From a virus (Duplodnaviria > Heunggongvirae > Uroviricota > Caudoviricetes): DNA of 4,853 nt. Below, piece after piece: positions 625-4,853 of this stretch. The translations under genes and the position numbers were made by a program. The stretch covers positions 1-4,853 of IMG/VR virus record IMGVR_UViG_2681813316_000023. One strand, written 5' to 3'. Each line of letters starts with the position of its first letter. The first letter of the stretch is position 1. The notes under the pieces are model-generated. The model was not told where the DNA came from. It saw only the letters and a list, made by a program, of their open reading frames with translations, and did no database searches.

Positions 625-1614
625 ATGAAGAAAAAATACGAACTGGTTGTTAAAGAGATAAATAATTACCCGGATAAGATTGCTGTTACTGTGGCACTTG
701 AAATTGGCGGGCATCCGTCGTTGTTGTTGCCACATGTGGCGATTAGTCTTGACCGTACTGAAGGTGCCACGCTGGAGTTCTACGAAGCTGAGGCGAAAAA
801 ACAGGCGAAGCAGTTTTTCATGGATATTGTTGCCGGGTTATGCGAAGGGGATGAACCGTCACCGGAAAAGCGCCCCGTAATTTTAGATGCGCAGGATGTA
901 TTGATAACCTACAAAGGAAAGCTACCGGGAAGAATTACTTGTTCTCTGAAGATGCCGCCGTCAACACTGCGGTCAGAAAAAGATGATGTTGAATCGCGTA
1001 TTGAAAAACTGGAGTGCTATATCGCTGAATTGAAAAAAAGCACCCCAACAAAAAATGAGGTGCTTGCAGCAGACGAAATGAAAGAAGCTATTCCTGATCG
1101 CGCGGCGAATCTAAGCTGCGCTTCATGGTTGAAAGAGCATCTTCAGCAGCCTGAAAAAAAACGCCGCGATGAGCAGTTTGCTGCGTTTTACGATTATTGC
1201 CGGAAAGTGATGAGCAGAAATCTCGCAGAGTGTTTCAGTATTCATAATGATAATTTCAGTGACCTGGAATGGGAGTGTAACCGGCCATCCTTTGTTGTAT
1301 CCGGTGATGCTGGGAAAATAACCATCTCAGAAAATGGAAAAGTAACACCGCCATCGCACCAGCATAGTGAGGAGCTCATTGAATTTGCCATTGATTACCT
1401 GAAGAACAATAAAAAGCAGGGGCTGATGAAGTGCATTGGTCGTTGCATGGGATATCTGCAGATAGCTGCTGAGATTGAAGCGCTGGCCAGTGGTGCGGAC
1501 AAGGATGCAGTTGTGCGGAAGGCTCTTCTTCGTGATTTTGATAATCCGCCCTTTAAAAAAGTGCCGGCTTACTGGTTTCATCCAGGACTGACTTATCTTA
1601 AAGGACGTATATAA
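625..1614 (+). CDS. Hypothetical 329-aa soluble protein inserted between holin and endolysin (moron/cargo gene); family not recognised
   Basis: Uninterrupted 329-codon ORF co-oriented with the lysis genes; ATG 625 lies 4 nt after the holin stop, with GGGAGA at 611-616. No signal peptide or TMD evident. Charged coiled-coil-like middle (about residues 110-180) and a Cys-containing C-terminal half. Confidence 0.75.
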   Translation: MKKKYELVVKEINNYPDKIAVTVALEIGGHPSLLLPHVAISLDRTEGATLEFYEAEAKKQAKQFFMDIVAGLCEGDEPSPEKRPVILDAQDVLITYKGKLPGRITCSLKMPPSTLRSEKDDVESRIEKLECYIAELKKSTPTKNEVLAADEMKEAIPDRAANLSCASWLKEHLQQPEKKRRDEQFAAFYDYCRKVMSRNLAECFSIHNDNFSDLEWECNRPSFVVSGDAGKITISENGKVTPPSHQHSEELIEFAIDYLKNNKKQGLMKCIGRCMGYLQIAAEIEALASGADKDAVVRKALLRDFDNPPFKKVPAYWFHPGLTYLKGRI

Positions 1615-2488: not shown

Positions 2489-2926
2489 ATGAACCGCGTA
2501 CTGTGCGTGGTCATCATTGCCCTGCTGGTGGCCTGTGGTGCGCTTAGTCTGGGGCTGAATCATTACCGTGATAACGCCATAACCTACAAAGAGCAGCGCG
2601 ATAAAGCCACATCCACAATCGCTGATATGCAGAAGCGTCAACGTGACGTAGCAGAACTCGATGCCAGATATACAAAGGAGCTTGCTGATGCTAACGCGAC
2701 TATCGAAAGCCTCCGTGCTGATGTTTCTGCTGGGCGTAAGCGCCTGCAAGTCGCCGCTACCTGTGCAAAGTCAACGACCGGAGCCAGCGGCATGGGCAAT
2801 GGAGAAAGCCCAAGACTTACAGCAGATGCTGAACTCAATTATTACCGTCTCCGAAGTGGAATCGACAAGATAACCGCGCAGGTCAACTACCTGCAGGAGT
2901 ACATCAGGACGCAGTGCTTAAAATAA
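2489..2926 (+). CDS. Rz: Rz i-spanin (inner-membrane spanin subunit), 145 aa
   Basis: N-terminal TMD followed by NHYRDNAITYKEQRDKA...MQKRQRDVAELDARYTKELADA...AGRKRLQV, near-collinear with lambda Rz as I recall it. Contains the embedded +1-frame Rz1. Confidence 0.9.
   Translation: MNRVLCVVIIALLVACGALSLGLNHYRDNAITYKEQRDKATSTIADMQKRQRDVAELDARYTKELADANATIESLRADVSAGRKRLQVAATCAKSTTGASGMGNGESPRLTADAELNYYRLRSGIDKITAQVNYLQEYIRTQCLK
2688..2873 (+). CDS. Rz1: Rz1 o-spanin (outer-membrane lipoprotein spanin subunit), 61 aa, embedded in the +1 frame of Rz
   Basis: AAAGGAG (2674-2680) sits 7 nt before ATG 2688. Signal peptide MLTRLSKASVLMFLLGVSA with lipobox L-G-V-S-A-C, then a Pro-rich mature region CKSPLPVQSQRPEPAAW...LNSIITVSE resembling lambda Rz1. 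ATG 2661 from the ORF track was not used (no SD, over-long signal peptide). Confidence 0.8.
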   Translation: MLTRLSKASVLMFLLGVSACKSPLPVQSQRPEPAAWAMEKAQDLQQMLNSIITVSEVESTR

Positions 2927-2963
2927 TTTTAATTTCACTGAAATTTAATACGTGACTTTCAGG

Positions 2964-2992
2964 AAAATGCCTCGCAGATGCGGGGCATTTTT
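2964..2992 (+). terminator. Rho-independent terminator closing the lysis operon
   Basis: Stem tgcctcgc (2968-2975) / gcggggca (2980-2987) with one G:U, 4-nt loop agat, flanked by AAAA (2964-2967) and TTTTT (2988-2992). Confidence 0.7.
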
Positions 2993-3285
2993 GTACAGGT
3001 ATTTCACCGCGCACCGCAGTGCACTCAACCACGTCGAACCAAACCCTTTGGAATGAGCCTTTGAGTAGTCAGTTAGTGCTGGTGAGCCTTGACGGGCTGA
3101 TCTCCTATGCAGCAAAGGTTCATCTCAAAGTAAGGCGAACGCTATGACAAACCAAGATTCTATAGACCTATCTGATCTTCGTGGAATGGTCAGTTTTCCA
3201 GACAAAAGGTAATCACCATAGTCGTATGGCTATGAATCTTGTTGCTGCAGATAAGCATTTTGTGATTGAAGTGGTCAAATCTCTC

Positions 3286-3342
3286 AAATGCAGTAAAATG
3301 CAGTGCGCTATAATTCAATAACGGAGGGAGTAAGGAGAAGTC
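3286..3342 (+). promoter_or_regulatory. Putative promoter/operator and RBS of the island nuclease-like gene: tandem 9-mer AAATGCAGT x2, consensus -10 TATAAT, SD AAGGAG
   Basis: AAATGCAGT at 3286-3294 and 3296-3304 (10-bp register); TATAAT at 3309-3314; GGAGGG at 3323-3328 and AAGGAG at 3332-3337, 5 nt before ATG 3343. No clean TTGACA-like -35 was found. Confidence 0.35.
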
Positions 3343-3963
3343 ATGAAAGATCAAGATGTTAGGTTCGCGGTGCATCATAAGCTTTTGAAAGAATCGCATT
3401 TAGATCCAGACTGCCTTGTGGTCGATGAATTTTCCATATCCCTTGGCGCCAGTAGAGCAGACATTGCTGTAATAAATGGTGTTATACACGGGTACGAGCT
3501 CAAAAGTGAATATGACTCTTTGGAGCGTTTGCCTCTTCAAATCAAGCATTATTCTTCTGTAATGGACAAGGTTACTCTTGTCGTAGCTGAGAAACATCTT
3601 GAGGGAGCATTAAAGTTAATCCCAGGTTGGTGGGGCGTTAAAACGGTTTCTGTTGGGCCAAAAGGCGCCATTCTTATAAAGCACATGCGTGGAGAAAAGC
3701 TTAATCGAAACCATGACACATTGATGCTCGCTCAATTGCTTTGGAAAGATGAATGTATCGACGTACTTGAACGATGGGGCTATTCCAAAGGAATCAAAAG
3801 CAAGCCCCGATTTGAGTTATGGAATATTATTGCGGAAAATATTCCAATAGCGAATCTCAGGCTTGAAGTCAGAACAGCCTTAAAGAAACGCGTAGGCTGG
3901 AAAGTTAAGGCTTGGCAGGCTGAGTCTGCGCCAACCAATAAAGCTGTCTCACGACTAACGTAA
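3343..3963 (+). CDS. PD-(D/E)xK (restriction-endonuclease-fold, Hjc/Mrr-like) nuclease-domain protein, 206 aa, on an AT-rich island
   Basis: Long ORF in AT-rich DNA with a strong SD. Motif E29 (VVDEF) ... D40 (RADIAVING) ... E52-L-K54 (VIHGYELKS) is the arrangement of PD-(D/E)xK nucleases. The C-terminal ~110 residues are basic and Trp-rich with no motif I recognise. Confidence 0.75.
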   Translation: MKDQDVRFAVHHKLLKESHLDPDCLVVDEFSISLGASRADIAVINGVIHGYELKSEYDSLERLPLQIKHYSSVMDKVTLVVAEKHLEGALKLIPGWWGVKTVSVGPKGAILIKHMRGEKLNRNHDTLMLAQLLWKDECIDVLERWGYSKGIKSKPRFELWNIIAENIPIANLRLEVRTALKKRVGWKVKAWQAESAPTNKAVSRLT

Positions 3964-4774
3964 TATGGTGCGTATGTGCAACTTTACGCCATTCTTTAGA
4001 GCCGCCAGATTTGTTAGCGCCTAATGATCTTTGGTAAATGTAATCATCCCCCCAACTAAATTTGGAACCAAAGACTTGATACTCTGGCGAACTAACAAGG
4101 GTAGTACATAAGTTTTTAGTTTGGCCCCATCCATTTCCTTTAACTGCGGTACCTTTTACAAAGATCCATGAGGTATCGTTCGAATATCTCACTGAGACAT
4201 ACTGAGACATGAAGCGTGGGTCTACGCTCGTAATGGTAGAGCTAGCGGTGGGATAATCACTAAAACTTGGCGTTCTTCCATTGCTAAAATTCTGTACTAC
4301 GTACATCCAAAGATCGTATTCATGGCGCGGAATATGATGAACTTGATGTTGCGGTATCCCTGCCTGTGATGCTGGGTATGCGGTTGAAGATAAAATCAAG
4401 TTTCTCCACGGAGCTTGGCCTGATAATGTGTTGACCATGCTTAATGCTTGTTGTTTTAAACTATCAGTTGCGTTTTGAATATCTCCAAAATCAATGATTA
4501 CATCAATTAAACTAGGATGAATATTTAAGTGGTTAACCAGACTTGTGAATTGGTGCCATGTCTGGGGGGTGATAGATATAGCGAGCCCATTGATTAAGTT
4601 GCGTTGAACAGCATGTATATAGTTTGTTGAATATGCGGGAGAAACAACAGGGATAATTTCCTTACCATTTACTCTAGCATCTTGGATACACATATCTAGA
4701 GGATGATGGCGGCTCGAACCATGTTTATCTAAATATTTAACATCCAGCAAAACAGGACGATTGATCCTACCCAC
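3905..4774 (-). CDS. Hypothetical 289-aa protein on the AT-rich island, convergent with and 3'-overlapping the nuclease-like gene; function unknown
   Basis: 870-nt uninterrupted minus-strand ORF in AT-rich sequence, where long ORFs are unlikely by chance. First start is GTG at 4774 with no convincing SD (next ATG is codon 27), so the start is uncertain. No TMD or signal peptide; no motif I can assign. Confidence 0.65.
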   Translation of the reverse strand: MGRINRPVLLDVKYLDKHGSSRHHPLDMCIQDARVNGKEIIPVVSPAYSTNYIHAVQRNLINGLAISITPQTWHQFTSLVNHLNIHPSLIDVIIDFGDIQNATDSLKQQALSMVNTLSGQAPWRNLILSSTAYPASQAGIPQHQVHHIPRHEYDLWMYVVQNFSNGRTPSFSDYPTASSTITSVDPRFMSQYVSVRYSNDTSWIFVKGTAVKGNGWGQTKNLCTTLVSSPEYQVFGSKFSWGDDYIYQRSLGANKSGGSKEWRKVAHTHHITLVVRQLYWLAQTQPAKP

Positions 4775-4853
4775 GTAATATGGACACAGGCCTAAGCGAG
4801 GTTCTGGTTTTCAAATTGTTCCGGACTGAGGCCGCCACACCAACTGTGCCGCC

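Follow-up and report, generated by a model that had tools for sequence, protein, structure and literature searches.

The DNA analysed here, referred to below as the window, is the whole of the 4,853-bp draft contig CYBQ01000077.1 of assembly GCA_001284265.1, catalogued as virus record IMGVR_UViG_2681813316_000023, and its right end lies inside a copy of the insertion sequence IS3. The left two thirds are a lambdoid lysis cassette encoding a P21-type holin, a 329-amino-acid (aa) DUF1327/YdfR-like protein, a lysozyme, and Rz with an embedded Rz1. To the right of Rz lie two convergent genes: an intact member of the sce7726 (Phage_P4_cII) family on the plus strand, and what is left of a Pfam Beta_protein gene on the minus strand. 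A first-pass annotation made from the letters alone had put these two genes forward as a candidate for an intact and undescribed accessory or defence system. The cassette that they form is a variant without gop, the first gene named in the gop-beta-cII defence system of P4; it is built from families that already have names, and it has most likely been inactivated by IS3 in this contig.

Both open reading frames (ORFs) that had been read from the sequence exist, at 3343-3963 on the plus strand (206 aa) and 3905-4774 on the minus strand (289 aa), and their 3′ ends share 59 bp. The first of them (3343-3963, +) is an intact gene, assigned from its ORF and from family profiles. Its product matches the NCBIfam profile sce7726_fam (NF033832) with 184.1 bits (E 2.3e-54, positions 1-182 of 184), the curated cut-off of this profile being 70 bits; Pfam PF26915, Phage_P4_cII, is precomputed for an identical protein, and the PADLOC 'cll' model matches at 4e-31. 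The protein consists of an N-terminal PD-(D/E)xK nuclease-like domain, a C-terminal helical (SAP-like) domain and a disordered tail at residues 190-206. It displays the two features by which the PD-(D/E)xK superfamily is recognised, namely the alpha-beta-beta-beta-alpha-beta core fold and the conserved E...D...(D/E)xK residues, with E29, D40, E52 and K54 invariant in 27 homologues of 39-84% identity. The 206-aa protein is a predicted nuclease of the PD-(D/E)xK fold with an intact catalytic signature. The nuclease-like call made on first reading is borne out, and D40, E52 and K54, the residues it had singled out, were correctly placed.

Profile searches with the 206-aa family found no solved structure significantly related by sequence. 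The same distance separates it from the characterised PD-(D/E)xK nucleases, to whose solved structures it has no sequence-level relationship: 3dnx, which we take to be an MmcB-like protein, type II restriction endonucleases, Can2/Card1 and NucS. An obligatory TIM-barrel (triosephosphate isomerase-type) partner and a C-terminal SAP-like domain are particular to the sce7726 family among these nucleases. The sce7725/sce7726 families (NF033831/NF033832), which had been offered as a guess for the pair, are likewise encoded side by side in accessory DNA, as a pair whose function is uncharacterised. The sce7726 half of that guess holds, at 184 bits, and the sce7725 half fails: sce7725_fam (NF033831, cut-off 60 bits) has no match at E<=1 in the 289-aa ORF, nor in the intact 355-aa protein described below, and the partner in this cassette is not sce7725. 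Two other beta partners give marginal matches to sce7725_fam, of 12-13 bits (E 0.05-0.1) and over profile positions 1-35 only. Membership of the partner in sce7725 was ruled out on the lack of a match for either the window ORF or intact beta.

The second ORF had been described as a complete gene, which it is not. Of its 289 codons (3905-4774, −), 285 are the 3′ part of a Pfam Beta_protein gene of 355 aa, and its GTG start (4774) falls inside the inverted repeat of IS3. Native beta residues begin in the window at about N71, and what is present is the 3′ portion of the gene, from residue ~71 to residue 355 and the stop codon (3905-4763, −); the first 70 codons, the promoter and the ribosome-binding site are gone. 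Pfam Beta_protein (PF14350) recognises the ORF with 148.6 bits (threshold 27) but only over profile positions 61-342 of 342, and phrog_9159 matches over positions 71-356 only. A complete Beta_protein is about 355 aa long and includes the N-terminal 70 residues that the 289-aa ORF lacks. The missing residues are among the best conserved in the beta family, the invariant Y6, P8, E16, P33 and K51 being absent from the window, and according to the structure model they supply the first strands and helices of the barrel. Because the GTG lies inside the IS3 repeat and the N-terminus and the promoter have been lost, the beta copy in the window is most likely a 5′-truncated pseudogene.

The cause of this truncation lies at the right end of the window, which is the right end of IS3 (4764-4853, −), recognised from its terminal inverted repeat (TGATCCTACCC...) and from the last codons of orfB. 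The first 'TG' of the element may be 4762-4763, and its start is placed at window 4762-4764; IS3 has the same orientation as the beta gene. Read on the minus strand, the last ~90 nucleotides (nt) hold the final codons of IS3 orfB (...RHSWCGGLSPEQFENQNLA*) and then the terminal inverted repeat; over 99 nt, this end of the window is 99% identical to 13,564 places in E. coli genomes that are annotated as IS3 transposase. The contig stops 90 nt into the element, so that the far junction of IS3 lies beyond the window. The GC-rich sequence near 4790, which had been understood as resumed phage DNA and as the right-hand end of the island, is the terminal 90 nt of this element, beginning at 4762-4764. 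At the junction the window reads GACGATTG|ATCCTACCC, whereas the intact copy reads GACGATTG|GCTTTCC. Complete E. coli genomes match the window over 2930-4763 and nothing beyond; strain 14EC047 (NZ_CP024155.1) does so with zero differences. This points to a true insertion rather than to misassembly, because the match with the intact gene breaks off precisely at the edge of the IS element. For a short-read contig to stop inside a repeat, as this one does, is also usual. The junction between IS3 and beta seen in the window was found in 0 of 5,426 complete E. coli genomes.

The sce7726 gene was left untouched by the insertion. The cassette in the window is nevertheless not intact, as had been supposed, the beta gene being cut by IS3, and this copy has probably lost its putative defence function. 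That the pair might still be an intact, undescribed two-gene defence or accessory system of the sce7725/sce7726 kind, functional in this genome, would agree with two open ORFs, with the membership of the 206-aa protein in sce7726 and with a position at a known site for accessory genes (a moron site). Such a reading is nonetheless very unlikely, given an ORF that starts in an IS3 repeat and lacks 70 conserved residues and its promoter, no match to sce7725_fam, and families that have been named and have relatives in published systems.

Intact copies of the cassette allow its boundaries and its history to be followed. In 14EC047 the intact beta is a 355-aa "beta family protein" (WP_000077907.1) that PF14350 covers over its full length, and RefSeq annotates the same pair in >100 E. 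coli genomes. Both families are already named (NCBIfam sce7726, PF26915 and PF14350); the pair is not undescribed, contrary to what had been proposed. The intact cassette occupies the site between Rz and terminase in 123-126 of the 5,426 complete E. coli genomes, measures ~2.0 kb and extends ~470 bp further to the right than the part present in the window, which comprises 3148-4763 as defined by GC content (0.414) and by the breaks in homology. In 14EC047 it lies, with its native flanks, at about 2217968-2220051 of NZ_CP024155.1.

On the left, a conserved post-Rz segment (2930-3147, +), identified by homology to P22 and to the E. coli prophage L086, ends in a 5′ stub of rha (~3076-3147), that is, in the first ~24 codons of a Rha-family regulator gene. 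Rha-bearing prophages and P22 are homologous to the window from the Rz stop codon as far as 3147, the left boundary of the cassette: the identity is 86% to P22 39429-39647, where rha starts at 39575, and 91% to L086 up to window 3147. On the right, 410 nt of intergenic DNA separate beta in intact copies from the terminase gene that lies upstream of it; in the 14EC047 prophage (locus L001) the match to the rha-ylcI prophage sets in again at L001 8232, which is 188 nt upstream of the beta start. Since the flanking homology resumes there, most of rha and ylcI, between Rz and the small terminase gene, has given way to a foreign cassette of ~2.0 kb. In that same prophage a different IS3-family element splits the small terminase gene (L001 8455-10316) and the large terminase gene is frameshifted; the 14EC047 prophage with the intact cassette is itself defective.

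Most related prophages are without the cassette, and other prophages carry still other genes at the site. Beyond this site, phage Rac-SA53 carries a 54%-identical version of the cassette in its nin region, adjoining IS1 and hok/mok, and Gordonia phage DumpsterDude carries the pair after its lysis genes, adjoining a BrnT-like toxin-antitoxin pair. The cassette clearly moves as a unit. The prediction of a moron locus whose contents are swapped whole was confirmed: the site between Rz and terminase is variable, and the cassette is exchanged in its entirety against rha-ylcI across related prophages. In DumpsterDude the sce7726-family ORF (L132; MT024859.1 28666-29280, +), 43% identical to the 206-aa protein of the window over 203 residues, is unannotated in the record, which lists a small minus-strand ORF (gene 32) in its place.

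Base composition gives a less striking picture than the one first drawn from it. The three hand counts of GC content on which that picture relied were exact (0.267, 0.367 and 0.667), but the lines chosen were extremes, and the change described as sharp is a modest drop from 0.480 for 1-2992 to 0.422 for 2993-4763, with 0.414 for the cassette proper. Repeats within 2930-4853 amount to just two 12-nt chance pairs, none of them flanking the cassette.

Upstream of sce7726, a stretch of ~350 bp had been described as non-coding DNA with promoter-like elements. The description stands in part. The stretch is composite, since 2930-3147 is the post-Rz segment with its rha stub, which leaves 3148-3342 as the only cassette-specific upstream DNA; a consensus promoter scan found two sites against 4.1 expected, and no excess. 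The last ~85 nt (3258-3342, +), by contrast with the scan, form a block that can be aligned across five genera. It contains a tandem ATGCAGT (3288-3294 and 3298-3304, with an AAA spacer), a perfect TATAAT (3309-3314) and a Shine-Dalgarno sequence AAGGAG (3332-3337), and it is conserved between the window and the copies of Edwardsiella, Klebsiella, Pantoea and Pectobacterium. We propose this block as a candidate promoter region of sce7726, in which the ATGCAGT repeat may be an operator. The promoter and terminator scan also missed the real terminator of Rz, which RNA folding confirmed (see below).

Little can be read about function from the beta protein itself. The model of intact beta has a predicted local distance difference test (pLDDT) score of 93 and shows a TIM barrel, and profile searches found no solved structure significantly related to the beta family by sequence. 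The family has 3,770 cluster representatives at E<=1e-3; among the best 150 of these, from which the domain layout was taken, all are single-domain proteins of ordinary length, bar a few short fragments, and give no functional hint. Structure comparison does bring up TGT and DpdA, which would allow the pair to be read as akin to restriction-modification, beta being a DNA- or nucleotide-modifying enzyme such as a transglycosylase and the nuclease cutting unmodified DNA. These matches, at 9% identity, rank below generic and de novo designed TIM barrels, there is no sequence-level match to any solved enzyme, and the loss of the supposed modification gene beside an intact nuclease gene is tolerated. 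A restriction-modification-like system is very unlikely, and a reading based on the TGT and DpdA matches was set aside because they are no better than those to generic TIM barrels.

More informative is the arrangement of the two genes. Their antiparallel 3′ ends overlap by 59 bp (3905-3963), a segment that encodes the disordered tail of the sce7726 protein on one strand and the last 19 beta codons on the other. The generality of this arrangement was surveyed by scanning one genome per species with an alignment of sce7726, which gave 80 loci, or 81 with the intact E. coli copy (L001); they come from Proteobacteria, Firmicutes, Bacteroidota, Acidobacteria, Nitrospirota, Patescibacteria and other groups. 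A convergent beta-family ORF lies downstream of sce7726 in 79 of the 81, the two exceptions being a contig end and a locus in which kinase and phosphatase genes replace beta. When viral loci were anchored on beta instead, an sce7726 partner was present in 40 of the 40 that were long enough to assess, in a set that represents few lineages only. The pair is also carried by plasmids and by chromosomes in a non-phage context, in many phyla.

The geometry of the overlap is conserved as well. Among non-redundant pairs, 68 of 69 overlap and 66 of 69 keep the same frame relation (an overlap length of 2 mod 3), while the distance between the last conserved codons of sce7726 and beta is exactly −8 nt in 61 of 69; the enterobacterial subgroup to which the window belongs has a 39-nt in-frame expansion of this spacing. 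The tail-to-tail beta/sce7726 pair is an ancient unit that has been inherited together, and co-regulation or ancestral packing may lie behind the fixed frame and spacing of the overlap. More distant sce7726-family genes occur without an annotated beta or sce7725 partner on P. aeruginosa pF007 (L133) and M. abscessus pGD21-1 (L134); in pF007 a Tn3 transposase abuts the 3′ end of the gene.

Within this unit, decay has been observed on one side. Beta is frameshifted, truncated or replaced, with sce7726 intact, in the window and at five other loci: L008, where a Ser/Thr-kinase fragment and a PP2C-like gene stand in place of beta, L044, L049, L053 and the IMG/VR contig L125. This asymmetry, with beta lost and sce7726 kept, is suggestive only.

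The beta/sce7726 pair has close counterparts in two systems with experimentally validated activity, gop-beta-cII and PD-lambda-2, and homology to both supports the association with defence that had been suspected from the sequence. The first, P4 gop-beta-cII (Ghisotti 1990; Rousset et al. 2022, PMC9122126; PADLOC 'gop_beta_cll'), is made of the same two families: P4 cII is a member of sce7726/PF26915, and P4 beta is the namesake of PF14350. As in the cassette studied here, beta and cII are convergent in P4, where gop lies upstream of beta. Another shared trait is the position on a mobile element, beside the packaging site and at a hotspot where cassettes are exchanged. The 206-aa protein is 27% identical to P4 cII (E 1e-18), and beta is 21% identical to P4 beta over its full length; the convergent homologues of beta and cII that characterise gop-beta-cII are therefore both present here. 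The differences lie in the overlap, which is 59 bp here and is replaced in P4 by a 27-nt gap with a terminator, in the size of the cII-like protein (206 aa here, 264 aa in P4), in the weakness of the PADLOC 'beta' match (5e-7 for the window ORF, 5e-10 for the intact protein), and above all in gop, which is absent both from the intact E. coli copies and from the surveyed loci: a phmmer search with P4 Gop found no homologue in any of the 81. Protection against lambda and P1 has been demonstrated for the three-gene locus of P4 (PMC9122126). In the absence of beta, which neutralises it, Gop is toxic (Ghisotti 1990, cited in PMC9122126), and according to a later preprint the toxicity of gop-beta-cII is triggered by a phage gene.

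The second system, PD-lambda-2 (Vassallo et al. 2022, PMC9519451), is likewise found in E. coli accessory DNA and acts by abortive infection. Its component A is HigB-like, B is a helix-turn-helix (HTH) protein with a peptidase and is toxic alone, and C, described as "related to a P4 phage antitoxin", is required for defence and not for toxin neutralisation (PMC9519451). Beta matches the PD-Lambda-2_C models (1e-25 to 2e-31) better than it matches P4 beta. Neither the window nor the intact cassette of L001 has the HigB-like A or the HigA-HTH plus peptidase B, and only the C-like gene (1e-25) is present; PD-lambda-2 as published has, for its part, no cII-like gene. In the survey, 18 of 71 non-redundant groups have a homologue of PD-lambda-2 B immediately upstream of beta, accompanied in 15 by one of A; a 159-174-aa alternative recurs at six loci, and the remaining ~75% of the groups have no recurrent third gene upstream of beta. 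In looking for the native E. coli PD-lambda-2 locus (ECOR42) and a convergent sce7726 gene beside it, a homologue search with a relative of PD-lambda-2 B gave, among the matches listed, relatives from soil and metagenomes only. The plasmids L129, L130 and L131, of Paraburkholderia, Acinetobacter and Limnohabitans respectively, carry HigB and HigA-HTH/ImmA-peptidase pairs without beta or sce7726. Since these pairs occur without beta, the toxin module is independent and combines with different third genes.

The pair is thus the shared core of gop-beta-cII and of many PD-lambda-2-type loci, without their toxin genes, and it is a member of neither as these systems are defined. The two-gene form is the commonest, and it is from this form that the published three-gene systems appear to have been elaborated. 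A role unconnected with defence, in which the pair would serve the phage or DNA repair, with an MmcB-like repair nuclease or with a 'cII' that regulates lysis-lysogeny or packaging, is highly improbable. Most related prophages lack the cassette, unrelated genes are interchangeable with it, the pair also occurs on plasmids and non-phage chromosomes of many phyla, and its relatives have measured anti-phage activity (PMC9122126, PMC9519451).

The same relatives lend some weight to a different possibility, that of a toxin-antitoxin or addiction module in which the cII-like nuclease would be the toxin and beta the antitoxin, prophage stabilisation being the main role and defence a by-product. P4 beta neutralises the toxic Gop (PMC9122126) and PD-lambda-2 C has been likened to a P4 antitoxin (PMC9519451); the two genes are tightly linked, and the conserved upstream repeat could be an autoregulatory operator. 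If beta were the antidote, however, its loss beside an intact sce7726, as in the window and the five loci listed above, ought to kill the cell. Type II toxin-antitoxin operons are not typically convergent, and PD-lambda-2 C is dispensable for neutralisation (PMC9519451). A simple model of nuclease toxin and beta antidote fits poorly, because the decay of beta is tolerated and because PD-lambda-2 C is not needed to neutralise the toxin; we consider such an addiction module unlikely.

Altogether, these findings make it likely that the foreign two-gene cassette is, in its intact form, a prophage-borne anti-phage module, and that the copy in the window has been disabled by IS3. The intact cassette would act as an abortive-infection or superinfection-exclusion module carried by the prophage. 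The TIM-barrel beta would sense infection or regulate the response, and the cII-like predicted nuclease would cut nucleic acid once infection had been detected; neither protein would be lethal alone at native expression.

Several points weigh against this model of a prophage-borne defence module. In the literature searched, no experiment on the two-gene form, without gop and without HigBA, was found, and its part in defence would be argued by analogy with its relatives. Among the PADLOC models, there are matches to single genes only and none to a complete known system. The toxic component in P4 is Gop and not cII. In the published work on PD-lambda-2 the clone ended 396 nt after gene C, which leaves too little room for a full sce7726; it defended nonetheless, and the nuclease is therefore not always needed. 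In structure comparison beta matches TIM barrels only generically, at <10% identity, which makes its role as a sensor a guess. The converse form of decay, with sce7726 lost beside an intact beta, was not seen in a survey that was anchored on sce7726 and could not by design detect it. As for the copy in the window, the truncated beta could conceivably be expressed by read-through from IS3.

A bolder version of the anti-phage model can be put forward tentatively, as possible rather than probable. The beta/cII pair, whose 3′ overlap keeps its frame from Patescibacteria to Enterobacteria, would itself be an autonomous and very widespread anti-phage system, of which gop-beta-cII and PD-lambda-2 would be elaborations with toxin modules added next to beta; its TIM-barrel member would represent a new kind of sensor of infection or of enzymatic regulator, and the conserved antiparallel overlap would couple the expression of the two genes.

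The remainder of the window belongs to the lysis region. The 329-aa protein is encoded at 625-1614 (+), between the holin and the lysozyme; residues 1 to ~100 are DUF1327/YdfR, and the long extension that follows matches the separate PHROG families 36381 and 26186. At this position the 14EC047 prophage, otherwise near-identical, has only a 116-aa YdfR. The Rz1 o-spanin is a +1-frame ORF at 2661-2873 (+), nested in Rz (2489-2926) as in P22 and lambda, and carries a lipoprotein signal (…FLLGVSAC…). Rz is followed by an intrinsic terminator (2963-2998, +), a 13-bp stem-loop plus U-tract, which had been claimed on first reading and is borne out by RNA folding: the hairpin at 2963-2992, with its 13-bp stem, has a folding energy of −21.5 kcal/mol (z = −6.3), which none of 200 shuffled sequences equalled, and UUUUUG comes after it. 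Against Rfam at E<=1, the whole window gave a sole match, to the rimP leader at 2257-2346 (−), outside the cassette; its 26.8 bits (E 0.29) fall below the gathering score of 47, and the match was taken as chance.

For the window, the result is mainly corrective: it holds a pair of known families in which IS3 interrupts the second gene, and this copy is a poor candidate for cloning. The moderate interest of the locus lies in the core pair that crosses phyla and not in the copy seen here. Two separately published E. coli defence systems share a beta-family core which, across phyla, almost always stands tail-to-tail with a cII-like nuclease gene, a gene that was left out of the PD-lambda-2 study. 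If the minimal pair is functional, the roles of the parts in two catalogued systems would be reassigned, and the pair would provide a common module for defence-annotation tools.

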